64,000 nucleotides of DNA from positions 96,001 to 160,000 of the forward strand of contig CAWDPO010000017.1 in assembly GCA_963804165.1 (NCBI GenBank), in the 5' to 3' direction. This document shows positions 12,574-54,914 of this stretch, piece after piece. How positions within the stretch are numbered: position 1 is the stretch's first letter; each line of letters opens with the position of its first letter. The stretch is from an uncultured delta proteobacterium. Lineage in GTDB: Bacteria; Desulfobacterota; Binatia; UBA9968. Position numbers and translations under genes: made by a program. The notes below the pieces were generated by a model. The model was not told the DNA's origin, did not search any database, and was given only the letters and a program-made list of their open reading frames with translations.

Positions 12574-13077
12574 ATGGATGCTGATGCAAAGAAGACCGCG
12601 CTACGGATGATTCCCTACGGAATTTACGTTCTTACGTCGGAAAGCAAGGATGGCAAAGTGGCGGCTTCGACCGTCAATTGGGTGACGCAGACGGCGTTCC
12701 AGCCGCCGCTGGTTGTCGTCGGCGTGAAAGCCGATTCCGGCGCTCACGCGATTATCAAAGAATCGAAAGTGTTTGCGCTCAATATGCTAGGTAAAGATCA
12801 AAAGGGACAGGCCTTTACTTTCTTCAAGCCGCTCGAGCGCGAAGGCAACACCATTGGCGGCGAGCCGTTTCGCAAAGGGTAGCTCGGCGCGCCGATCTTG
12901 GAAAATGCGCCGGCATTTGTCGAGTGCCAGTTGGTCAACACGATCGAGATGGGCGATCACTCGATCTTCGTCGGTGAAGTGAAGGATGCCGGCGTTGCGG
13001 TGGCACCGACGGGTCGGCCGGACGACGCGATCTTGGCGATGCGCGATTTAGGCGAGAAAGTTTTTTACGGCGGATGA
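12574..13077 (+). CDS. Flavin reductase family protein with in-frame TAG at 12880-12882
   Basis: LRMIPYGIYVLT, NWVTQTAFQPPLV; the same frame continues past the stop as LGAPILENAPAFVEC...GDHSIFVGEV...FYGG*. Confidence 0.85.
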
Positions 13078-38853: not shown

Positions 38854-40401
38854 CTATTTCTCACGCAGCTTGAAACGCTGAATCTTCCCCGTCGCGGTCT
38901 TGGGCAGCTCGGCGACGAACTCGATCCAGCGCGGATATTTGTATGGCGCCAGCTTAGCTTTCACGTGGCGCTGGAGATCGGCGGCGAGGGTTTCGGTCTG
39001 CGCCACGTCGGGGCGCAGCACCACGTAGGCCTTCGGTTTGATCAGACCGTTTTCATCAGCTTGGCCGACCACGGCGGCTTCAAGCACAGCCCCGTGGGAG
39101 GCGACGGCGGATTCGACCTCAAAGGGCGAAACCCATATCCCGCTCACTTTAAGCATGTCGTCGTTGCGCCCTGAGTAGGTAAAATAGCCGTCTTCGCTTT
39201 CAGTGTATTTGTCGCCGCTTCGCGTCCACGGGCCGAGGAACGTGCTGCGGCTCTTTTCGCGGTTGTTCCAGTAGTGAGCAGCAGCCGTCGGACCCGCCAC
39301 TTGCAACTCACCGATCTCACTTTTGGCGACCGGCCGGCCGTCTTCGTCGACGAGCCGGACATCGTAGCCGGGCACGGGCTTGCCGGTGGTGCCGTAGCGC
39401 ACGTCGCCCGGACGGTTCGATAAAAAGATATGCAGCATTTCAGTAGAGCCCAGGCCGTCGAGAATATCCACGCCGGTGTGCTCCAGCCAGCGCCGGCCCA
39501 CCTCAGACGGCAATGCTTCGCCGGCGGAAGTGCAGCGGCGCAAACTAAGCTCTTCCCGCCTCGGTAACTCCGGACACGACAGCATCGCGCTGTAAAGCGT
39601 GGGGACGCCGTAAAAGATCGTCGGCCGATACTCGCGCAGGATACGGCAAACCGCTTGTGGCGTAGGCCGATCGCCGAGCAAGACCGTCGTGGCACCGACC
39701 GAAAGCGGAAAAGTGAGTGCGTTGCCGAGTCCGTAGGCGAAGAACAACTTCGCTGCCGAAAACACGACATCGCTTTCCTGGATACCGAGGACCGGTTGAG
39801 CATACGACTCGGCGGTACGAATCATGCTCGTTTGCACGTGCACCACACCCTTTGGCGTGCCGGTGGAACCGGATGAGTAGAGCCAAAAGCAGGCGTCGTC
39901 GGCGCGGGTCGGCGCGGCGGTGAAATCTGTGCCGGCCGTAGCCATCAAGTCTGATAGCCGTTGGTGCCGCGAGAGACTTTCTCCCGATACGACTACGTGC
40001 TTTAGGAACGGTTGGTCATCGAGGATCGGCGCAAACACCGGCAGCAGCGCTTCGGACACGACCAGAGCTTGAGCACGGCTGTCGCGCAGCATGAAATCGA
40101 AGTCACTGTCCATGAGCAGCGTGTTGACGGCGATCGGCACCATCCCGGCTTTGATCGCGCCGAGAAAGACGGACGGGAAATCGATAGTGTCGAGGAGGCA
40201 GACCATGACGCGGGTTTCCAGCGCCAAGCCGAGGCCCGTGAGTGCGTTGGCACAGCGGTTCACACGTTCGGCGAGAGCGGCGAAGCTATAGCTGCCGCGC
40301 TCATCAATATAGGCGGTTTTCTGCGGCCTAGTGGCGAGGTTCCGATCGATCAAATCCTGTGCCGCGTTGTAGCGCTCCAGTGTCGCTGTGTGCGCGCTCA
40401 T
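38854..40401 (-). CDS. Benzoate-CoA ligase family protein
   Basis: FWLYSSGSTGTPKG, SAAKLFFAYGLGN, LDGLGSTEMLHIFLSN, LPKTATGKIQRFKLR. Confidence 0.93.
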   Translation of the reverse strand: MSAHTATLERYNAAQDLIDRNLATRPQKTAYIDERGSYSFAALAERVNRCANALTGLGLALETRVMVCLLDTIDFPSVFLGAIKAGMVPIAVNTLLMDSDFDFMLRDSRAQALVVSEALLPVFAPILDDQPFLKHVVVSGESLSRHQRLSDLMATAGTDFTAAPTRADDACFWLYSSGSTGTPKGVVHVQTSMIRTAESYAQPVLGIQESDVVFSAAKLFFAYGLGNALTFPLSVGATTVLLGDRPTPQAVCRILREYRPTIFYGVPTLYSAMLSCPELPRREELSLRRCTSAGEALPSEVGRRWLEHTGVDILDGLGSTEMLHIFLSNRPGDVRYGTTGKPVPGYDVRLVDEDGRPVAKSEIGELQVAGPTAAAHYWNNREKSRSTFLGPWTRSGDKYTESEDGYFTYSGRNDDMLKVSGIWVSPFEVESAVASHGAVLEAAVVGQADENGLIKPKAYVVLRPDVAQTETLAADLQRHVKAKLAPYKYPRWIEFVAELPKTATGKIQRFKLREK

Positions 40402-44267: not shown

Positions 44268-45176
44268 TCAGACCAGCTTCTTCACTTTCGTGTGACTGCC
44301 TCGCGCCAAAAGGGCGTCGATTAAAGATCGATGCAACGACTTGGCCGCTGCGAACTTTCTATAGATCACTGAGACTTCCATCGTTCCAATTTCACGCGTC
44401 ATATCGACGGATTGAAGGTTTCGCGATTGTCTCAGTAAACAGGTGTCGTGGACGAAACCGATGCCTAGTCCAAGTTCGACGAATTCCATTATGGTGTCGC
44501 ACGTACCGGCCTCTAGTATGTTTTCCGCCTCAATGCCATACCTTGACAGAGCTGCATCCACCAACTTTCGCGTCGGCGTCGGGCTGGTGTGAAGAACCAC
44601 CCGGTAATTCGTGATGTCTGCCAAAGATGGTTTCTTCCTCTGCGCTAGCGGGTGTCGCGCCGGAAAAATCAGGTGCATCCTGCTCGTGAACAGAGGCTGT
44701 TTTTGAATATCGTGCGGAACCTTTGTAAACCAGCCCACGGCGGCATCGATGGCGCCGTCGCTTAGCAGGGGCACCGCCTCGCGTGGGTAGCGGGAAAGCA
44801 CCGTCAGTCGAAGGTCTGGATGGCCTTGGCTAAACGCCGCGATGCGCGGCGCGAAATGCTTCGGTAGATCGCTTGAAAAAGCTATCGTCAATTTCTCGGA
44901 GTAGCCGGGAGATCCTTTCGTCGCTGACTCTTGCAGTCGGTTGAGGGCGGCCAAAATAACCTCCGTTTGTTTTAATAGGACAGCGCCGGTTTGCGTTAAA
45001 ACGAGTTTGTTTGGATGACGATCGAAGAGTTGGACGCGCAGGTCTCTCTCGAGTTTCTTGATTTGCAGGGAGATGGCCGGTGAGGTGAGTTTGAGATAAT
45101 TCGCGGCCATTTTGAGGCTGCCGTACTTTCCGACAAAATGGAATGCGCGCAGATTTTTTAAATCCATATCCGGCAA
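44268..45176 (-). CDS. LysR family transcriptional regulator
   Basis: AANYLKLTSPAISLQIKKLE..LFDR..LTQTG; VELGLGIGFV; divergent from the operon at 45346. Confidence 0.95.
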   Translation of the reverse strand: MPDMDLKNLRAFHFVGKYGSLKMAANYLKLTSPAISLQIKKLERDLRVQLFDRHPNKLVLTQTGAVLLKQTEVILAALNRLQESATKGSPGYSEKLTIAFSSDLPKHFAPRIAAFSQGHPDLRLTVLSRYPREAVPLLSDGAIDAAVGWFTKVPHDIQKQPLFTSRMHLIFPARHPLAQRKKPSLADITNYRVVLHTSPTPTRKLVDAALSRYGIEAENILEAGTCDTIMEFVELGLGIGFVHDTCLLRQSRNLQSVDMTREIGTMEVSVIYRKFAAAKSLHRSLIDALLARGSHTKVKKLV

Positions 45177-45345
45177 ATTTCGACATCGACAAAAATGCGA
45201 TGTTTATCGAGGAACCAAGATTTTTTGCGGCTTGTTCGATTAAGCAAACGTGAAGCTACTATATAGCAAGAATTAATCTTGACAAACCCACAGTTCCGCG
45301 AAATGGTGCGCTCAGTTCAAACCTATCGGCAGGAGGTCATCAATC

Positions 45346-46410
45346 ATGGCGATTTTTCTATCTCACGGCGGAACATCCGTTTACGATTCAAATGGCCTTT
45401 CGGACGAGGTACTGGTTGGAACTGTTGCAGGAATTTTCAGGATTCGAAAGAGCGGCTCCAACCGGTGGAGCGTCAGCGAACGGCACCTCGAGGGGCTGCA
45501 CATTCATACCTTGGTGCTCGAGCCCTCGAGTGGATTGTTGTTTGCCGGCGCTCACAAAGGTTCGCTGCACGCGAGTGCGGACGGCGGAAAATCATGGCAG
45601 CACCGAGACAACGGAATCACCAAGAAAGATATCTATTGTTTGAGTTTCACGAAGCGCCAAGCCGGCGTGAAGCTATATGTCGGGACCGATCCGGCGCACC
45701 TGTTCGAAAGCGATGACTTGGGCGAGAGTTGGACAGAGATTCCCTCGCTGCGCGATGTGCCGAGCGTGGACAAGTGGTTTTTTCCGGCGCCGCCGAAATT
45801 TGGCCATGTCAAAAACGTCGCGATTAACTGGCGCGATCCAAACGTCGTCTACGCGTGTATCGAGCAGGGCGGACTGCTCAAGACCACGAATGGTGGCCGG
45901 TCGTGGCAGGAACTGCATGGCTTCGATGACGACGTGCATAGAGTCTTAATTTCTCCGTCGAACAGCGAACGCCTCTTCTTGTCCACGCGCGCGGGAATTT
46001 TACAAAGCGACGATGCCGGCGAGAGTTGGAATCCTCTGCCCATGGCATCGACCCACATCGGCTACCCCGATGCCCTGATCGTTCATCCCAAACGCGAAAA
46101 CGTGATGTTCACTGCGGGCGCCGCGAGCCGTCCGCCGTTTTGGTTACAGACGCATGCCGCGGATGCTCGAATTGCGCGAAGTACGGACAGCGGAAAGAAT
46201 TGGGAAGTGATGCAGAACGGCCTACCGGAGAAAATCCACGGTAACGTGGAAGCGATGGCTATGGAAGTTTACAACGGCTCTTTTGGGCTTTATGCGGGTA
46301 CCACCGATGGCGAGGTCTTTTTTAGCGACAATGAAGGGAATGATTGGAGCAAGATCGTCGAGGGACTGCCGCCGATTTCCAAGGCCCATCACTACTTGAT
46401 CATAAGATAG
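45346..46410 (+). CDS. Asp-box (BNR) repeat beta-propeller protein, cytoplasmic
   Basis: Repeated S/T-x-D/N-x-G-x-S-W boxes (SADGGKSW, SDDLGESW, TTNGGRSW, SDDAGESW, STDSGKNW, SDNEGNDW); no signal peptide. Confidence 0.88.
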   Translation: MAIFLSHGGTSVYDSNGLSDEVLVGTVAGIFRIRKSGSNRWSVSERHLEGLHIHTLVLEPSSGLLFAGAHKGSLHASADGGKSWQHRDNGITKKDIYCLSFTKRQAGVKLYVGTDPAHLFESDDLGESWTEIPSLRDVPSVDKWFFPAPPKFGHVKNVAINWRDPNVVYACIEQGGLLKTTNGGRSWQELHGFDDDVHRVLISPSNSERLFLSTRAGILQSDDAGESWNPLPMASTHIGYPDALIVHPKRENVMFTAGAASRPPFWLQTHAADARIARSTDSGKNWEVMQNGLPEKIHGNVEAMAMEVYNGSFGLYAGTTDGEVFFSDNEGNDWSKIVEGLPPISKAHHYLIIR

Positions 46411-46436
46411 GGCTCGAAATCCGGGGAAGCGATCGA

Positions 46437-48020
46437 ATGGCATACTACAAGGGCCTGAGAGATTTGCTCGAGGTTCTCGAGCGTCACGGGAAGCTTGTCC
46501 GCATTTCTCGGCCGATCATCAAAGAAACGGAGTTGGTTCCTCTGGTCAGGCTTCAATTTCGCGGGTTGCCCGAGTCCAAGCGCAAAGCCTTTCTGTTTGA
46601 AAATGTCACGAGCGTGACCGGCAAAAAATATCCGGGCTCGGTTGCGGTTGGCACCTTTGCCGCCTCGCGCGAGGTTTACGCCCTTGGCATGATGTGCGAC
46701 GCCGCCGATATCGGTGAAAAATGGGTGAGGGCGTTGACCCATCCCATTCAGACGAGGACCGTCGATTCCGGCTGCTGCCAGGAGGAAGTGCACGTCGGAG
46801 AAAACCTGCTGGCGGAAGGCCTCGACGAATTACCCGTGCCGGTGAATACGCCCGGCTTTACCGGAGCGCTGCGCACGACTGCATCCCACGTGATCACCAG
46901 GGACATAGAAACCGGTGTGCAAAACTGCGGCTGCTATGCAGGTAAGTTCCTGGATCGAAACTTGATTGGGCTATCCATCGGGCCGACGCATCATGGCTCG
47001 ATACATTGGCGCAAGAGCAAAGAGAAGGGAATTTCCCCGCCCGCAGCCATCGTTATCGGCGCGCCGCCGAACATCGCTTATACCTCCGTCGCTTCGCTTC
47101 CGTACGGAGTGGATGAGCTCGCCGTCGCCGGTGGAATAGCCAACGAGCCGGTCGAGATGGTCAAATGCAAGACCATAGACCTGGAAGTGCCCGCCCATTC
47201 AGAAATCGTTATCGAAGGAGAGGTCTCCATCGATCGAAGGGTAGGATCGGCGTCCTTCGGGGAGTTTACCGGCTATATGTGCAAAGGCGCGCCGAACACC
47301 AACTATTTGATGAAAGTGACCGCCATCACCCACAGGAAGAATCCGATTTACAGCGTGTTTCTCAGTCAAATGCCACCGAGTGAAAGCAGCAAAATCGTTC
47401 AGATTGCCTTGGAGAACGTTTTTTACAAACACCTGCGGCACGATTGCAACATATCAGGAGTGATGGAGATTGCCTTTCCGGAATCCGGCGGCGGACGGAT
47501 GATTTGCATCATCCGCATGAAGAAACGAAATCCGAGCGACGTTTGGCAGGCGCTGAGCGCCGCAAATGGATTCGCTTCGGATCGCGCCAAAATTATCATT
47601 GTCGTCGATGAGGACATAGATCCCAAGGATCAGGAGGCGGTGAATTGGGCTCTGAGCTTTCGCATGCAGCCTCATCGCGACATTCACATCATGCGCGGCA
47701 GAACCGCGGGACTGGACTATTCCGCCTATGATCCGGCCGGGCCGCGCGAGGCCAGGATTTATCCGGAAGGGTTGGGGGCTTCATCGCTGATGATCGACGC
47801 GACCCTCAAATGGCCCTATCCGCCGATCTCCTTGCCCAAGAAGGAATACATGACTCGCGCCATCGAGTTATGGAATGAGCTGGAATTGGGGCCGCTCGAC
47901 TTGAAGTCTCCTTGGCATGGTTACGATCTTGGTTGCTGGTCTCAAGAGGACGAAATCAACGCGGAGTTGATTACGAGCGGCAACTACAAAGAGGTCGGGA
48001 AAAAATTAATGAGGCCCTAG
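46437..48020 (+). CDS. UbiD family (prFMN) protein with altered active site
   Basis: AFLFENV, VKCKTIDLEVPAHSEIVIEG, FGEFTGY, SQMPPSESS, IIIVVDEDIDP, VNWALSFR, IDAT. Confidence 0.93.
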   Translation: MAYYKGLRDLLEVLERHGKLVRISRPIIKETELVPLVRLQFRGLPESKRKAFLFENVTSVTGKKYPGSVAVGTFAASREVYALGMMCDAADIGEKWVRALTHPIQTRTVDSGCCQEEVHVGENLLAEGLDELPVPVNTPGFTGALRTTASHVITRDIETGVQNCGCYAGKFLDRNLIGLSIGPTHHGSIHWRKSKEKGISPPAAIVIGAPPNIAYTSVASLPYGVDELAVAGGIANEPVEMVKCKTIDLEVPAHSEIVIEGEVSIDRRVGSASFGEFTGYMCKGAPNTNYLMKVTAITHRKNPIYSVFLSQMPPSESSKIVQIALENVFYKHLRHDCNISGVMEIAFPESGGGRMICIIRMKKRNPSDVWQALSAANGFASDRAKIIIVVDEDIDPKDQEAVNWALSFRMQPHRDIHIMRGRTAGLDYSAYDPAGPREARIYPEGLGASSLMIDATLKWPYPPISLPKKEYMTRAIELWNELELGPLDLKSPWHGYDLGCWSQEDEINAELITSGNYKEVGKKLMRP

Positions 48021-48092
48021 GCCTAATTTGACGACCAACCGAATGCGCATACCGGGACATCGTAAAAAAACCTTAATCGGAAAGGGACGTTT

Positions 48093-49229
48093 ATGACCGT
48101 TGATACCCTCGTCGACATGGATGAGTTTCAGCACTGCTACTTCACCGGACCGGATACGTTGGCGGGAAAATACATGCGGATGTTTTGGCATCCGATCTTT
48201 CGGTCGGAGGATCTCAAGCCGGGATGGACGCAGCCGGTTCGGATCATGAACGAGGATTTTACCCTGTATCGAAGTGAAGCGGGCAATGCTCATCTCGTCG
48301 ATTACCGGTGTGCCCATCGCGGCGTGCCGCTGACGGTGGGATGGGTGGAGGGCGAATGTATTCGGTGCCGCTTTCACGGCTGGAAATACGACAGCACAGG
48401 CCAATGCGTGGAGCAGCCTGCGGAGGATGAATCTTTCGCGGCAAAGGTCAAAATTCGGAGCTTTCCAACCAAGGAATATTTGGGCCTCGTCTTCGCGTAT
48501 TTCGGCGAGGATGCGCCGCCGGAGTTTCCTCGCTATCCGGAATTCGAGAACAAGACTATTTGGATCGAGACCTACATCCGGCCTTGCAACTTCCTTAACA
48601 ACATCGAGAACGACCCCATTCATATTCCCTTCACTCACCGTGAGTCGGAGTTTTTTATCAACCGGCCGGTGGAGATCCCGTCAGTAAGCATAGAAGAGAC
48701 CGAATACGGAATCCTGCTGCGCTCCGATTTCAAGAGCGGCCGTTATCACGTCACCCATCACGGCATGCCCAACGTCTTATGCTTTCGCCGCGGCGGGGAC
48801 CGCGATCATTTGGCGTTCCGCGTGCCCATCGACGACGATCAACACGTGAGTTTTCAGGTGGACGTGCAATTCAAGACGGGAAACGAAGCGGATGAGGCGG
48901 TCCAGAAGCGGCATGCGGCGAGGAGCGGCCAGCTGGGGCGTTCGCCCAACGAAATGGGCGAAGCGGTTCTGCGCGGCCGGATGCGCATTCAGGACATCGA
49001 GGGCGATGAAAAGGCGAATATCGTATGGATACAGGATTACGCTGTGCAAGTCGGTCAGGGTCCGGTGCGCACGCGAAAAAAGGAGTGGCTCGGCCGCTCG
49101 GACAAGGCGTTGATTATGCAGCGCAAGCTTTGGGAACGTGAGCTAAAGGCTGTGGCCGAAGGCCGGCCGATCAAGCGATGGGTATGGACGGAACGGTTGG
49201 CGGCCATCGGCTCGTACAATCCCCTGTGA
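48093..49229 (+). CDS. Rieske non-heme iron oxygenase alpha subunit (phthalate 4,5-dioxygenase-like)
   Basis: CAHRG...CRFHGW Rieske ligands; ENDPIHIPFTH and IQD mononuclear Fe ligands. Confidence 0.93.
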   Translation: MTVDTLVDMDEFQHCYFTGPDTLAGKYMRMFWHPIFRSEDLKPGWTQPVRIMNEDFTLYRSEAGNAHLVDYRCAHRGVPLTVGWVEGECIRCRFHGWKYDSTGQCVEQPAEDESFAAKVKIRSFPTKEYLGLVFAYFGEDAPPEFPRYPEFENKTIWIETYIRPCNFLNNIENDPIHIPFTHRESEFFINRPVEIPSVSIEETEYGILLRSDFKSGRYHVTHHGMPNVLCFRRGGDRDHLAFRVPIDDDQHVSFQVDVQFKTGNEADEAVQKRHAARSGQLGRSPNEMGEAVLRGRMRIQDIEGDEKANIVWIQDYAVQVGQGPVRTRKKEWLGRSDKALIMQRKLWERELKAVAEGRPIKRWVWTERLAAIGSYNPL

Positions 49230-49259
49230 GTTTGGGTCGTAGTCACTCAGGATGAAAAC

Positions 49260-50399
49260 ATGACGCGGTATACGTCGATCAGAACGGCAATCGTGATGTG
49301 GATTTTCTTGGGCTTCCCTTTCTTGTGGGCAAACTCAGCCAGCGCGGGCGAAGCCAAGCCTAGTGCGCAGGCCGCCTGGGAGAAGGTCGTGGCTGCGGCG
49401 AAGAGCGAGGGCGCGCTGACGATCTACGGCAACACGGGCTACGACGCCATTTTCACTGAGTTTGAGAATAGATATCCGGGCATCAAGGTCGTCTACGTCA
49501 CCGGCCGCGGCGGCCCCGACATTGTGCCGCGGATATTGAGCGAGCAGAGGGCGGAGAAATATTTGGGCGACTTGTTCCTGGCCGGCCCCACCCCGGCGTT
49601 TACCTTGCACCAGGGCAAAGCCTTGGATCCGATCAAGCCGGCTTTGATTCACCCCGAAGTGTCGGATGAATCGAAGTGGTGGCAAGGCAAGCATCAATAC
49701 GTCGATAAGGAAGGCGCGTATATTTTTACTTTCAACGGCACGTTTCGGGTCGACGTGGTTTACAACAGCAACTTGGTCAATCCCAAAGAATTAAATTCGT
49801 ACTGGGATCTGATCAACCCGAAGTGGAAGGGCAAAGTCGTCTCATTCACGCAGATTACGGCGCCGCATAAATTTTTCTTTTACCAGCCGGAGCTCGGTCC
49901 GAAATTTTTAAGCCAGCTTTTCGGCCAGATGGATGTGATCAATAGCGCAGATATGCGTCAGATCGCGGACTGGTTGGGAGTGGGAAAGCACGCCATCGGT
50001 CTTTTCGTTTCTCCGGGTAACCGAAGCATCGGCAAGGCTCGGGAGCAAGGTCTGCCGTTGGGCATCTTCAAGGCGGACCATTTCAAAGAAGGCGTGGCGC
50101 TGCTGACGGCGGCGGGCTCCGGAGCTCTGCTCAAGCGCGCGCCGCATCCCAATGCAGCCAAGTTGGCGATCAACTGGCTGCTCTCTCGCGAAGGACAAAT
50201 CGCTTTTCAGAAAAATTATGTGAGAGAGACGGGCGCCGCCGATTCGTTCCGAACGGATATCCCCAAGGACGAAATACCCGTGGAATTCAGGCGCAAAGAG
50301 GGAGTCAAGTATCTGGACATCGATTCGGCGGAGTACATCGACCCCAAACCGGTTCAGGATTTTTACAACAAACTCTGGGGCGGTCGCACCAAGAACTGA
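49260..50399 (+). CDS. Extracellular solute-binding protein (copy 1)
   Basis: Signal peptide; AAAKSEG, SYWDLINPKWKGK, APHPNAAKLAINWLLSREGQ. Confidence 0.88.
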   Translation: MTRYTSIRTAIVMWIFLGFPFLWANSASAGEAKPSAQAAWEKVVAAAKSEGALTIYGNTGYDAIFTEFENRYPGIKVVYVTGRGGPDIVPRILSEQRAEKYLGDLFLAGPTPAFTLHQGKALDPIKPALIHPEVSDESKWWQGKHQYVDKEGAYIFTFNGTFRVDVVYNSNLVNPKELNSYWDLINPKWKGKVVSFTQITAPHKFFFYQPELGPKFLSQLFGQMDVINSADMRQIADWLGVGKHAIGLFVSPGNRSIGKAREQGLPLGIFKADHFKEGVALLTAAGSGALLKRAPHPNAAKLAINWLLSREGQIAFQKNYVRETGAADSFRTDIPKDEIPVEFRRKEGVKYLDIDSAEYIDPKPVQDFYNKLWGGRTKN

Positions 50400-50425
50400 A
50401 TCGATCAGCACAACAGGAGGAATCT

Positions 50426-51541
50426 GTGGCTGGCACAAACAATCCATCGGAACCGGTCATTTCGGCGCCTCCCTTGGAGACGGCGTATACCCAGTGGCTG
50501 CGCGAGGAGGAAGTTCCCAAACACGAAGGCTCCTGGGCGGATCTCAACGCGGTCGCGGTTGAGCCGTGGAAGCGGCTGGGGTGCCTCGGGGCGTATGTCA
50601 GTCTAGCGGAGCAACAATCGCTCGACGCCTACGTTGCCGAGATTCCCGCGGGTGGCAAGACTCATCCGGCTCGCCATCTATACGAAGAGGCCATTTATGT
50701 CCTCCGGGGCCGGGGAGCAACGACCGTTTGGTACGATGGCATGCCGAAGCAAACCTTCGAATGGCAGGAGGGCAGCCTTTTTTCGCCGCCGCTTAACTGT
50801 TGGCGCCAGCACTTCAACGGCGAGGGCAATGAACCGACCAGATTTGTCAGCATCACCACCGCGCCGCACACCATCAATCTTTTCCGCGATAAAAAATTTA
50901 TCTACGACAATCCGTTTGTCTTCAGCAGCCGCTATCAGACCAACCCCAAGTATTTTAGCGGCGCCGGTGTGCAAGAGACCTACACTTTGCCGGATTCTCC
51001 CGGCCGTCACCGAAAAGTTTGGAAGACCAATGTCGTCCCCGATGTTCTTCACTTCGAAAATCTTACGGACCACAGCCGCGGCATGTACGCTCCCGGGGCG
51101 GCGCTCTCGGTGCATTTCAATCTCGCGGAAAACACCATGGGCGGGCACATCGCCGACCAAAAGCCGGGCTATTATAAGAAAGCCCACCGTCACGGCCCGG
51201 GCGCGCATCTGATCATTCTGCGAGGCACGGGATATTCGTTGCAATGGTTGGAGGGACAGCCGCGGGAGAGAGTCGACTGGAAGCCAGGTATCGTCTTCTC
51301 GCCGCCGGACATGTGGTACCACAACCATTTGGTCACCGGCAAAGAGCCGGCGCGACTGCTGGCGGTCCACTGGGGAGGTGCGCACATCGGCGTCAATCGC
51401 GGGACGGAGAAGAACTACGGCGATCAGATCGAATACGAGGACGAGGATCCGGAGATTAGAAGGGAGTTCGAGCGCGAGTGCAAGAAAAATGGCGTCACGG
51501 TGCAGATGCCGCAAGTGACTTACCGCGGTTCAAAAACGTAG
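50426..51541 (+). CDS. Bicupin protein (gentisate-dioxygenase-like fold)
   Basis: RHLYEEAIYVLRGRG..PPLNCWRQHFN and KAHRHGPGAH..PPDMWYHNH; GTG start after AGGAGG. Confidence 0.85.
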   Translation: MAGTNNPSEPVISAPPLETAYTQWLREEEVPKHEGSWADLNAVAVEPWKRLGCLGAYVSLAEQQSLDAYVAEIPAGGKTHPARHLYEEAIYVLRGRGATTVWYDGMPKQTFEWQEGSLFSPPLNCWRQHFNGEGNEPTRFVSITTAPHTINLFRDKKFIYDNPFVFSSRYQTNPKYFSGAGVQETYTLPDSPGRHRKVWKTNVVPDVLHFENLTDHSRGMYAPGAALSVHFNLAENTMGGHIADQKPGYYKKAHRHGPGAHLIILRGTGYSLQWLEGQPRERVDWKPGIVFSPPDMWYHNHLVTGKEPARLLAVHWGGAHIGVNRGTEKNYGDQIEYEDEDPEIRREFERECKKNGVTVQMPQVTYRGSKT

Positions 51542-51593
51542 CGAATAAAAGTGGCCAAACGCAGCCAAAACGGATGGAAAGGAGAAGTCCGAT

Positions 51594-52529
51594 ATGAAGC
51601 GGATGCAGGTCCAAGTAGGTCCAAACGGCAGTCCTCTCAATCGACCGAGCAGTTTGGAGGATTGTTTACGCAAAGATTTCCAGGAAAAGAAGCACGCGAT
51701 CAAAATGAGCGAGGTCAAGCTCGAGCCCGTCAAGGGAACTGAAGGTTACCGCAGCGGGTGGTATGACTTCGGCAGCCAAGTCGTGGCGTGGGGTCTCACC
51801 GAAATCAGCCCGGGCGGTGCCGGACCCCTGCATCGCCAGTTGTGTGAATCGACGATGTTCGTCTTGGAAGGCGAAGGCTATACCGTCGTCAATGGCCGGA
51901 GATTCGATTGGAAAAAGGGCGATGTGCTATTCGTCCCGTTGTTCGCATGGCATCAGCATGTCAACACCGGTCAGCGTGCGGCCAAATACGCGCGCATGAG
52001 CACTGCGCCGATCTATAAGTTTCTCGGCTTGGGTGGCGAGGAAAACTTGTCGCCGCCGGCGTCCTGGGACCGTGCCGACGAAGAATCGGGGCCGCTTGGC
52101 AAAGTGCTGTTGAAATTCGAAGACGGGCTCGGACGAGAAAATTGGGAGAAATCCCGCGACGGTCAAACCGTCACGTTCGATTTCCAATATCGAATTCCGA
52201 CGACTCGCCGCGTTCCTTCCCGGATCATGCCCAACGAGAGCGGTGGCATGCACCGCCACGCCAGCGAGGCGCAAATCTTCATCTATCAAGGCAAAGGCTT
52301 TTCGACCCTCAACGAGAAGCGGATCGAGTGGGAGGCCGGGGACGTTGTGCGGGTTCCGCTTTTCGCCTGGCACCAACACACGAACACGGGCAACGAGCCG
52401 GCGATCTGGCTCAAACACACTTCGGCGGCACTCTATAAACAGATCGGCTTGCTCATGCGCGATGCGAGACCGGGATTCGGCGGCAGCGACGATGTCGCGG
52501 AGTTCAAAGACGATTTCGCACCGTATTGA
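51594..52529 (+). CDS. Bicupin protein
   Basis: LHRQLCES..PLFAWHQHVN and MHRHASEA..PLFAWHQHTN. Confidence 0.85.
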   Translation: MKRMQVQVGPNGSPLNRPSSLEDCLRKDFQEKKHAIKMSEVKLEPVKGTEGYRSGWYDFGSQVVAWGLTEISPGGAGPLHRQLCESTMFVLEGEGYTVVNGRRFDWKKGDVLFVPLFAWHQHVNTGQRAAKYARMSTAPIYKFLGLGGEENLSPPASWDRADEESGPLGKVLLKFEDGLGRENWEKSRDGQTVTFDFQYRIPTTRRVPSRIMPNESGGMHRHASEAQIFIYQGKGFSTLNEKRIEWEAGDVVRVPLFAWHQHTNTGNEPAIWLKHTSAALYKQIGLLMRDARPGFGGSDDVAEFKDDFAPY

Positions 52530-52570
52530 TCCGTAGCGACCGGCGTATCTACGTTGAAGATGGACGACCC

Positions 52571-53696
52571 ATGAAGCGATTCTTGTCGTTTTCATTAAGC
52601 GCGTTGACGCTCTTCATGCTCTTTTCATGGGAAGCTGCTCCGGCTTTTTCCGCCGAAGCGGTCAATACTCAAGCATCATGGGATAAACTGGTACGCGCCG
52701 CTAAGGGCGAAAAAGAACTCACCATCTACGGCAACGTGGGCTACGAGTCGATCTTTGCCGAGTTTTCCAAGAAATTTCCCGACATCAAGCTCACCTATGT
52801 CACGGGACGAGGATCCGCGGATATCGTGCCGCGCCTGCTGAGCGAGCAGCGCGCCGGAAAGAACCTGGGAGATATTTTTTTGGCCGGTCCTAACGGGACT
52901 TACGTCATCCATCAGGCCAAGGGTCTCGATCCTTTGAAGCCAGCGTTGATGCTGCCCGAGGTTGTCGACGAATCGAAGTGGTGGCAGGGAAAACATCAGT
53001 ACGTCGATAAGGAAGGAGCTTACGTATTTACTTTCAACGGCACCTTGCGCGTCGACGTCGTAGTCAACACAAACCTGGTAAATCCAAAAGAATTAAGTTC
53101 CTATTGGGATTTGATCAATCCTAAATGGAAAGGAAAGGTCGTCGCATTTACGCAGATAACGGCTCCGCACAAGTTTTTTTTCTATCAACCGGAGCTCGGT
53201 CCAAAATTCTTAAATCAGCTTTTCGGCCAAATGGATGTTACCCCGAGCAATGACATACGGCAGATAGCGGACTGGTTGGGGGTTGGAAAGTTCGCTATCG
53301 CGTCTTTTCACTTCTCCAGGCAATCGCAATATCGGCAAGGCGCGGGAACAAGGATTGCCGATCGGCAGCTTCAGACCGGATCATTTTAAAGAAGGCGCTG
53401 CGTTGCTTACTGCGGCGGGTGCCGGCGGACTCCTCAAAGGAGCGCCGCATCCCAACGCCTCCCGTCTAGCGTTCAATTGGCTATTATCACGCGAAGGGCA
53501 GATTGCTTTTCAAAAGAACTATGCCAGGGAAACCGGAGCGGCAGATTCTTTTCGGATAGACATTCCAAAAGAGGACATCCCGGTGGAGTTTCGGCGCCAA
53601 GATGGAGTAAAGTACTTCGACGTGGACAGCGTCGAATATATCGACCCCAAGCCGGTTAGAGATTTCTACGGTAAACACTGGGGAACACGAAAATAG
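52571..53696 (+). CDS. Extracellular solute-binding protein (copy 2), +1 frameshift near 53301
   Basis: Close paralog of 49260-50399; removing one C at ~53301 restores IGLFTSPGNR. Confidence 0.85.
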
Positions 53697-53762
53697 CCGC
53701 CAAGAGCGCCGGGAACTGCAGATGATGGGCATCGATGCTTTCGAAATGCGAGGTAAGAGCTG

Positions 53763-54551
53763 ATGTCTGATTATGTCTTGTTCGAGCAGCGTGGCCATGT
53801 GGCGATCGTGACGATCAATCGGCCCGAGCGCATGAACGCGCTCGGCTCCGAAGTGCGCCAGGGACTCGTCGACGCGTTTCTCAAAGTGCGCCAGGAGCCG
53901 TCGATCCACGTCGCCATCGTCACCGGTGCGGGCGACAAGGCTTTTTCGGCGGGCGCGGACCTGAAGGAGCACAATGAACTGTTCCAAAAGAAATCCTATC
54001 GCGTCGGACCGGACTACGGGGCGTTGGATGAGCCGCCGCATTCGAGCACGTTGGCCATAGAAACATACAAGCCGGTCATCGCAGCGGTGAACGGTTATGC
54101 GCTGGCCGGCGGATGTGAGCTGAGCTTGGCCTGCGATATTCGTATCGCTGCGGAAAACGCCCGCTTCGGCCTGCCGGAGGCGAAGCGCGGTCGCGGCGCA
54201 AACTTCGCCACGGTGATGCTGCAATACTTGATTCCGCGCGGCATCGCGATGGAAATGCTTTTCACCGGCGAGCAGATCTCAGCGCAGGACGCGTTGCGAT
54301 TCGGCCTGGTCAATCGCGTGGTGCCATTGCCCGAGTTAATGCCGACGGCGATCGCCTTGGCGGAAAAAATCGCCGAGAACGCGCCGGTGTCGTTACGACG
54401 CATCAAAGAGCTCTCCGTGAAATCCATCGGCTCGCCGTTGTTCTTTGCGTTGAAAATGGCACCGGGACCTAGTCCGTACGAAAGCCAAGACGCGCGTGAA
54501 GGCGCTAAAGCTTTTGCCGAAAAGCGCTCGGCGAAATACAAGGGCGACTGA
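53763..54551 (+). CDS. Enoyl-CoA hydratase/isomerase family protein
   Basis: AFSAGADL, KPVIAAVNGYALAGGCEL, FGLPEAKRG (both catalytic Glu present). Confidence 0.93.
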   Translation: MSDYVLFEQRGHVAIVTINRPERMNALGSEVRQGLVDAFLKVRQEPSIHVAIVTGAGDKAFSAGADLKEHNELFQKKSYRVGPDYGALDEPPHSSTLAIETYKPVIAAVNGYALAGGCELSLACDIRIAAENARFGLPEAKRGRGANFATVMLQYLIPRGIAMEMLFTGEQISAQDALRFGLVNRVVPLPELMPTAIALAEKIAENAPVSLRRIKELSVKSIGSPLFFALKMAPGPSPYESQDAREGAKAFAEKRSAKYKGD

Positions 54552-54649
54552 TCGAAGTTAAACGACCAACACTGGCCGTGACAAACGCTGCTGTTCACAT
54601 TCAACGTTCGTGTCTGAGGATTGGTTCTCCCTCTGAGGTTGTGTCGCAA

Positions 54650-54772
54650 TGTCATTCTGAGGAGTGGAGCGACGAAGAATCTGCTTTTTGGTTTTGTAGT
54701 TTCGGAACGCCAAACGCGATTCGACACGAGTACCGAAGAAAAGCAGATCCTTCGCTAGGGCTCAGGATGACG
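54650..54772. repeat. Inverted REP doublet inside the operon
   Basis: gtcattctgaggagtggagcgacgaagaatctgc ... gcagatccttcgctagggctcaggatgac. Confidence 0.7.
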
Positions 54773-54914
54773 CGGGCGCGATTTTTCGTATGCGAGAAGG
54801 ACAGGATGAGGGTCGCGCGGAGCAATTCGCCCCCCACCGCAGTCCTCTTCCAAAGGGAGAGGAAGTAATGCTCTTAATGAGTCATCCGACGTTATTGGTT
54901 TGCAGGAGGAATCC

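Follow-up and report, generated by a model that had tools for sequence, protein, structure and literature searches.

Can a UbiD-family protein work without two of the three residues that make up the catalytic E(D)-R-E network? The question is raised by a gene in a 64,000-nucleotide (nt) stretch of DNA, here called the window, from an uncultured delta proteobacterium of the Binatia lineage UBA9968 (assembly GCA_963804165.1, contig CAWDPO010000017.1, positions 96,001 to 160,000). The gene encodes a UbiD-family protein, P0001. A first-pass annotation, made from the letters of the window, had proposed that both the catalytic Arg and its partner Glu are replaced in this protein. It read the paired loss of their salt bridge as selection for a different chemistry or substrate, or for a noncatalytic subunit. 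We found that the replacements are present, that a large clade shares them, and that the gene is under strong purifying selection. P0001 probably belongs to a distinct UbiD subfamily of about 530 residues with a C-terminal extension, in which, judging from sequence comparison, the E(D)-R-E network would have been rebuilt rather than lost. We lean toward P0001 being an active (de)carboxylase that uses prenylated flavin mononucleotide (prFMN), has relocated basic residues, and acts on an aromatic acid.

Replaced and retained active-site residues

As the first-pass annotation held, the open reading frame is full length. It translates into 527 residues without a stop and contains all three Pfam UbiD domains, UbiD, UbiD_N, and UbiD_C (PF01977, PF20695, and PF20696; 171.1, 80.4, and 31.6 bits against cutoffs of 23.3, 24.2, and 24.3). 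We take ATG 46437 as the start, not the upstream TTG 46344, because relatives of 94% and 84% identity are also 527 residues long, with 100% query coverage. P0001 scored below the cutoffs for the alpha and beta subunits of phenylphosphate carboxylase (TIGR02723, 110.2 against 564.6 bits; TIGR02724, 126.6 against 468.95 bits), for VdcC (203.7 against 650 bits), and for the SCO4490-type menaquinone decarboxylase (201 against 495.9 bits). An AlphaFold2 model built on a 123-row alignment had a mean predicted local distance difference test score (pLDDT) of 94.7. A Foldseek search with this model matched HmfF, Escherichia coli UbiD, AroY, VdcC, HudA, and Fdc1 with a probability of 1.00 and template modeling (TM) scores of 0.71 to 0.79. 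HmfF and E. coli UbiD were the top matches (TM scores, 0.72 to 0.79).

To locate the active site, we used four phmmer alignments to solved structures: HmfF (6h6x and 6h6v), PhdA (7pda), and AroY (5o3m). Ala168 lies opposite the Arg of N-x-x-x-x-R in all four, and Ser271 lies opposite the first Glu of E-G-P-F-G-E in three, the exception being AroY. In both HmfF sequences, N-V-S-I-H-R stands opposite N163-C-G-C-Y-A168 of P0001, and E-G-P-F-G-E stands opposite S271-A-S-F-G-E276. PhdA likewise keeps the Arg and the Glu. AroY keeps the Arg and has S-G-H-A-M-P-E opposite S271-A-S-F-G-E276. AroY is an active prFMN enzyme, and in its alignment to residues 266 to 280 of P0001 the first acidic column of E(D)-R-E holds no Glu. 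By this alignment, the first acidic position is already variable in one active enzyme.

The remaining active-site residues are in place. Both the structure alignments and the clade alignments bore out the acid Glu (E276) and the ligand positions N163, H186, and E227 that the first-pass annotation had called retained. In UbiD enzymes, the metal ions of the prFMN phosphate are held by an Asn, a His, and a Glu (N168, H191, and E233 in Fdc1). The replaced Arg is named "R168/173 (ShVdcC/Fdc numbering)" in PMC8379154, and this name fits the equation of the three network positions with R173, E277, and E282 of Fdc1.

A clade without Arg168

Other genomes share the change. In a nearest set made of the query and the 120 best relatives of 4,946 database matches, R168 was present in 58 proteins, and 62 carried Ser, Gly, Ala, or Gln instead. 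Position 271 was Glu in 57 and Asp in 1 of the 58 with R168. Neither acid was found there in 59 of the 62 proteins without R168, so the loss is indeed paired. Column 276 was Glu in 114 and Asp in 7. Arg168 was missing from every relative of 66 to 97% identity that covered the column. We then used a wider set of 247 proteins, which combined database relatives, this genome's paralogs, and full-length representatives from an exhaustive family search (the best 150 of 5,401 representatives taken as source). A database search with a profile of the clade added 43 new proteins, 40 without Arg168 and 3 canonical, for an aligned total of 290.

Across these 290 proteins, an Arg at position 146 accompanied the loss of Arg168. 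Arg146 was present in 109 proteins, all without Arg168, and in none of the 179 with Arg168; the other 2 lacked Arg168 and had Tyr146. Arg146 is the Arg of the A-L-R-T-T motif, which the first-pass annotation had named as a residue that, by taking the place of the lost one, would refute its reading. At the level of sequence, that possibility is partly realized. One of the 109 proteins, P0128, sits on a long branch outside the main clade and is a weak independent replicate.

Other positions in the active-site region change with these. Compared with canonical members, the clade without Arg168 has Ser, Thr, or Gly for Asp142; Ile, Leu, or Met for Pro145; Arg for Tyr146; Cys or Thr for Asn166; a small residue for Arg168; Lys or His for the Met or Gln at 170; Leu, Arg, or His for Lys172; His for Gln185; a variable residue for Glu271; and Ser or Ala for Pro273. 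Five of these positions are near universal in 123 more distant members (D142 in 115, Y or F146 in 116, R168 in 120, E or D271 in 118, and P273 in 120), and all five are altered in the clade.

Conservation within the clade is uneven. R146 was found in 68 of 68 clade members of the 247-protein set, and it is one of 21 invariant columns in the clade alignment of 66 sequences, together with N163 and E227. Position 170 is Lys in 22 of the 24 members of the nearest clade and His in 30 of the 38 members of the next. All 24 nearest members have H185, and C166, H186, and E276 are invariant there too; Arg267 is an additional feature of this group. Across the whole clade without Arg168, conservation reaches at least 90% for H186, F274, G275, and L426. 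Position 168 varies among G, A, Q, and S, and position 271 varies among S, A, G, T, H, and others. In these alignments, this variability is the pattern of vacated sites. The plain loss of a salt bridge described in the first-pass annotation is therefore only part of the picture: the loss is paired and selected, but it looks like a relocation of basic residues to R146, K/H170, and H185.

We examined where the relocated residues might lie. DSSP assignments on the model put residues 162 to 166 and 168 to 173 in a strand that adjoins strand 150 to 155, with residue 146 as an isolated bridge. From the register of this hairpin, Arg146 would pair opposite residue 172 or so and share the sheet face of 168 and 170. 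Arg146 and/or Lys170 may provide a positive charge that holds the substrate carboxylate or CO2 and tunes prFMN. The residue preceding the metal-ligand His, Gln190 in Fdc1, is presumably a cofactor-contacting position. At a position where Fdc1-type enzymes use Asn or Gln, oxygen-sensitive UbiD enzymes for aromatic acids are described as contacting the cofactor with an Arg, Lys, or His (PMC8379154). If Gln190 is that position, His185 would fit an aromatic-acid enzyme.

A FastTree phylogeny from which both motif stretches had been removed placed all 68 sequences without Arg168 in one clade (support, 91). Its sister group comprises 56 sequences, all of which have the Arg and Glu or Asp. P0001 falls in a 24-member subclade (support, 100) that reads Q-N-C-G-C-Y-[GAQS]-G-K. 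When all discriminating columns were removed, the sequences fell into two pure clades, one of 90 (support, 99) and one of 18 (support, 100), and the branch that splits them had a support of 9. Therefore, one origin and two origins cannot be told apart. The trees were midpoint rooted, and gain versus loss was not formally polarized. The source labels of clade members are Thermodesulfobacteriota, Desulfobacterales, Chloroflexota/Dehalococcoidia, Thaumarchaeota, and Caldarchaeum, and all are metagenome bins.

The gene is maintained by selection. We compared it with two metagenome loci, L107 and L108, whose proteins are 82% and 77% identical to P0001. Nonsynonymous differences per site (pN) were 0.11 to 0.14, and synonymous differences per site (pS) were 0.75 to 0.82. 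The synonymous sites are saturated, so the ratio omega is far below 1. In the window, L107, and L108, respectively, residue 146 is encoded by CGC, AGG, and CGT, so that the Arg is held through synonymous change. Ala168 is encoded by GCA, GCC, and GCA, and Ser271 is encoded by TCG, TCC, and TCG; K170, H186, E227, and E276 are held likewise. Contigs of two other sequencing runs (X2 and X3; pieces 92 to 97% identical) also span codon 168, and the 40 of 93 differences that were listed include no change there. Thirteen sequencing runs contained matching DNA, with a share of at most 0.15 each, and there was no RNA run among them.

These results bear on the possibility that the gene is decaying, or that codons 168 and 271 reflect a sequencing or assembly error. 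What speaks for decay is that the gene is accessory, since a search of 40 related genomes, including 24 congeners, gave no orthologue of more than 49% identity, and its cluster was not found in 30 congeners. Against it stand the full-length, stop-free frame, the same residues in relatives of 94%, 84%, 82%, and 77% identity, the pN values at saturated synonymous sites, and the recurrence of the pattern across 109 sequences. Decay and sequencing error are excluded, as the first-pass annotation had supposed for decay, and we leave next to no probability to either.

A contig scan with P0001 alone returned 80 loci, the best of which was 51% identical and canonical, and the 11 best-scoring loci from relatives all read as canonical. 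A profile of the nearest clade, run against genomes of the phylum with three candidates scored per genome, gave seven matches outside this genome, one of them without Arg168 (in genome G066). The 8.3-kb cluster was not contiguous in any of the 30 congeners. The congener tallies include an unpublished genome, G005, without which they are 23 and 29. In the 30 congeners, G005 included, nothing beyond paralog-level similarity (69% nucleotide identity or less) was found for the cluster from the LysR gene to the bicupin genes (44268-52529). The absence of the cluster from congeners, while the L107 Rieske and UbiD proteins are 92% and 82% identical to those of the window, suggests that it was acquired horizontally. 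Its G+C content is 0.52 to 0.57 and that of the flanks is 0.57 to 0.60, a difference too small to argue for an island.

Gene neighborhood, paralogs, and cofactor supply

The UbiD gene is part of a tight co-directional array (Table 1). The successive gaps, starting with the one between the BNR gene and the UbiD gene, are 26, 72, 30, 26, and 52 nt, followed by a 4-nt overlap. In L107, the UbiD gene is surrounded by LysR, BNR, Rieske, and solute-binding protein genes. The BNR gene is again directly 5' of the UbiD gene there (71% identity), and the Rieske copy is 92% identical. The L108 context has a bicupin gene and a fragment of a binding-protein gene. Scans for promoters and terminators over 44900..54900 gave counts at or below those in shuffled sequence.

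Table 1. Genes and active-site codons of the locus, with two further genes of the window
Feature	Position	Strand	Remark
Flavin-reductase match	12604-12999	+	PF01613, 117 bits; one internal TAG; about 34 kb upstream of the UbiD gene
Benzoate-CoA ligase family gene	38854-40401	-	TIGR02262, 800 bits
LysR-type regulator gene	44268..45176	-	Divergent from the array; 59% identical in L107
BNR/Ycf48-like beta-propeller gene, 354 residues	45346..46410	+	Ends 26 nt before the UbiD start
UbiD-family gene (P0001), 527 residues	46437..48020	+	
Arg146, codon CGC	46872..46874	+	Tyr/Phe in canonical members; clade invariant
Asn163	46923..46925	+	Conserved metal-ligand position
Ala168, codon GCA	46938..46940	+	In place of the family Arg (Fdc1 R173/ShVdcC R168)
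Lys170, codon AAG	46944..46946	+	Two residues past 168; Met or Gln in canonical members
His185-His186	46989..46994	+	H186, conserved metal-ligand His; H185, in place of sister-clade Gln
Glu227	47115..47117	+	Conserved metal-ligand position
Ser271, codon TCG	47247..47249	+	In place of the first Glu (Fdc1 E277)
Glu276	47262..47264	+	Retained acid/base Glu of F-G-E (Fdc1 E282)
Rieske oxygenase gene, phthalate-dioxygenase-like	48093..49229	+	Nearest solved structure, putative phthalate 4,5-dioxygenase 7fhr (E 9.5e-39)
SBP_bac_1 solute-binding protein gene	49260..50399	+	85% identical in L107; partial copy in L108
Bicupin gene, 371 residues	50426..51541	+	Weakly like gentisate/5-aminosalicylate dioxygenases; 62% identical copy in L108
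Bicupin gene, 311 residues	51594..52529	+	Like gentisate/5-aminosalicylate 1,2-dioxygenase, below family cutoffs
Second solute-binding protein gene, shortened, 287 residues	52526..53389	+	68% identical to 49260..50399 over 249 residues; N-terminal part missing

This context would fit an enzyme of aromatic-acid catabolism. We suggest that the acid may enter via the adjacent solute-binding protein and be processed with the phthalate-type Rieske oxygenase and the gentisate-dioxygenase-like bicupins, under LysR control. P0001 would still use prFMN to (de)carboxylate an aromatic or heteroaromatic acid. Elsewhere in the window, the benzoate-CoA ligase family gene adjoins a gene for a TAXI-type TRAP binding protein, which looks like a second aromatic-acid route.

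The genome is rich in UbiD genes. We counted 49 PF01977 matches in it and 37 full-length UbiD paralogs. Arg168 is kept by 34 of these paralogs; the three without it are the target, C9:38870, and C20:47134. Of the 37, six have a bicupin gene within 3 kb, six a Rieske gene, four a binding-protein gene, and one, the target, a BNR gene. These tallies indicate that the target's module is of the same kind as those of the canonical paralogs. Genome-wide, the relatives number 23 for the bicupin of about 370 residues, 35 for the phthalate-type Rieske protein, 70 for SBP_bac_1, and 13 for BNR. That a single genome (7.5 Mb, 81% complete) holds such large paralog families, with UbiD, bicupin, and Rieske genes often adjacent, is an observation in its own right. 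Some UbiD paralogs look broken (C36:23088-23671, C9:33878-35342, and C11:6-1432): one match has two internal TGA codons, and two are split into overlapping open reading frames.

The second clade member of the genome, at C9:38870-40444, heads an array of its own, with a bicupin gene, two binding-protein genes, a broken UbiD gene, another bicupin gene, and a permease gene. The solute-binding proteins there are 31 to 33% identical to the product of 49260..50399, and the bicupins are 37 to 38% identical to the 371-residue bicupin. A further clade member, in G066, has S168, keeps R146 and K172, and lies in what may be an anaerobic carboxylation cluster (G066:C18:5510-19399, L196). That co-directional array includes a sigma-54 activator, a nitroreductase, a molybdopterin oxidoreductase, hydantoinase A/B, an alcohol dehydrogenase, a xanthine-dehydrogenase-type enzyme, and a canonical UbiD. 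None of the clade members in L108, C9, and G066 had the BNR gene beside it.

The genome encodes the flavin prenyltransferase UbiX at C14:20766-21434 (NF004685, 283.5 bits against a cutoff of 188). On its two sides stand a riboflavin-kinase-like gene and a gene for type-2 isopentenyl diphosphate isomerase, and together they look like a compact prFMN supply cluster. A search for PhdC-like flavin-reductase genes gave seven matches across the genome, all outside the target's cluster; the match nearest to the UbiD gene is listed in Table 1.

The paralogs also raise the possibility that P0001 is a noncatalytic subunit, the other option in the first-pass annotation. Two of the three residues of its catalytic triad are missing, and the genome offers 34 canonical full-length paralogs as possible partners. 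One co-directional array of G066:C18 holds both a clade member and a canonical UbiD, and some known carboxylases combine two UbiD-like subunits (PMC7500099). However, the nearest other UbiD genes on the target's contig, C17, are more than 100 kb away. Conservation of the ligands and the acid Glu is at the level seen in enzymes, and the clade has gained an invariant R146 (with C166, H185, and K170 in the nearest clade), unlike relaxed pseudoenzymes. Purifying selection is strong. With Leu426 also conserved and no canonical UbiD as a neighbor, we consider a noncatalytic role improbable.

Comparison with known UbiD enzymes

P0001 has the three-domain architecture, the fold, the Asn/His/Glu ligands, and the F-G-E acid Glu in common with the canonical Fdc1 of Aspergillus niger and UbiD of E. 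coli. It differs from them in having Ala for R173 and Ser for E277, in the replacement of D142, P145, Y146, and P273, all near universal in the 123 diverse members, in the new Arg146, and in about 70 extra C-terminal residues. The closest solved structure is the 2,5-furandicarboxylate decarboxylase HmfF (6h6v/6h6x; E 2.7e-47; TM score, 0.72 to 0.74; 29% identity). However, HmfF is shorter, at 448 residues, and keeps N-x-x-x-x-R and E-G-P-F-G-E. The protocatechuate decarboxylase AroY (5o3m) has the UbiD fold and, like P0001, lacks the first Glu in the phmmer alignment, but it keeps the Arg and is 25% identical to P0001 in the Foldseek alignment. The uncharacterized sister clade of about 530 residues ('NYRAM ... 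EREAPFGEF') is 50 to 54% identical to P0001 and has the same length and C-terminal extension. It differs in keeping D142, P145, Y146, R168, K172, E271, and P273.

What the loss of the Arg may cost can be seen in Fdc1. The R173A variant kept low activity and matured its cofactor slowly (PMC5818171). This residual activity means that the Arg is not absolutely required and that its loss is survivable in principle. The same study shows that the loss is costly when it is uncompensated (PMC5818171).

These data also bear on a further alternative. P0001 may bind (pr)FMN and yet perform another kind of chemistry, such as isomerization, hydration, or cofactor handling, or it may need an outside maturation factor for want of the self-maturation Arg. 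Fdc1 R173 variants accumulate a prFMN radical and mature very slowly (PMC5818171), and dedicated helpers are known in the LpdD chaperone (PMC10865409) and the PhdC maturase (PMC13040415). In VdcCD, LpdC/LpdD, and PhdA/PhdC, a UbiD gene has a small or unrelated neighbor that aids the ERE loops or maturation (PMC8379154, PMC10865409, and PMC13040415). The target's neighbor differs from these: the 354-residue BNR beta-propeller is unrelated to VdcD, LpdD, and PhdC. It lies immediately 5' of the UbiD gene in both the window and L107, and at least seven columns of the active-site region change together in the clade. On the other side, Glu276 and Leu426, the counterparts of residues needed for decarboxylation by Fdc1 (PMC8379154), are conserved. 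The BNR gene accompanies one of the 37 paralogs and is not found beside the other clade members named above, and the gene context is that of ordinary aromatic catabolism. We therefore regard different chemistry or dependence on a helper as unlikely, though less so than a noncatalytic role.

We favor an active enzyme with a rebuilt network because the ligands, the acid Glu, and Leu426 are conserved, because new invariant residues have appeared on the active-site strands, because the neighborhood is catabolic, and because there is no canonical UbiD nearby. Several points weigh against this choice. The presumed placement of R146, K170, and H185 within reach of the active site rests on sequence and secondary structure. 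P0001 narrowly misses the NCBIfam family TIGR00148 (239.2 bits against a cutoff of 244.85). Neither the bicupins nor the Rieske protein reach the cutoff of any curated family, and they identify no substrate. The G066:C18 clade member lies about 10 kb from a canonical UbiD, which fits a heteromeric, possibly noncatalytic role. No characterized or cultured clade member was seen among the named database matches. Fdc1 R173A, R173K, and E277Q are nearly or fully inactive, with disturbed maturation (PMC5818171). The E(D)-R-E motif is called 'integral for activity' (PMC8379154), and the triad is called "conserved in the UbiD family" (PMC8988006). A full-text literature search, which did not reach supplementary alignments or subscription papers, returned no paper on UbiD proteins that lack the Arg, nor on a clade of the Arg146 type.

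More tentatively, the replacement of E(D)-R-E by Arg146, Lys/His170, His185, and Glu276 could be a second active-site solution for prFMN chemistry. Carboxylate binding would then differ from that of canonical enzymes, and maturation probably would as well; in the target's branch, the cotranscribed BNR propeller may help in maturation as a novel type of partner for UbiD. We hold this proposal to be possible but doubtful.

Research on UbiD enzymes is directed at their reversible (de)carboxylation, with CO2 fixation and the upgrading of aromatics in view. The E(D)-R-E network is the usual explanation of both their mechanism and their maturation, and papers call it family-wide. A clade that is under purifying selection, has lost two of the three E(D)-R-E residues, and has kept the cofactor-binding and acid residues is a natural experiment on that explanation. 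It offers concrete targets: one protein, four residues, and one adjacent binding protein for substrate screening. Either the function of the Arg is supplied from another strand, which would be a lesson for engineering, or prFMN is matured and used differently in these proteins.

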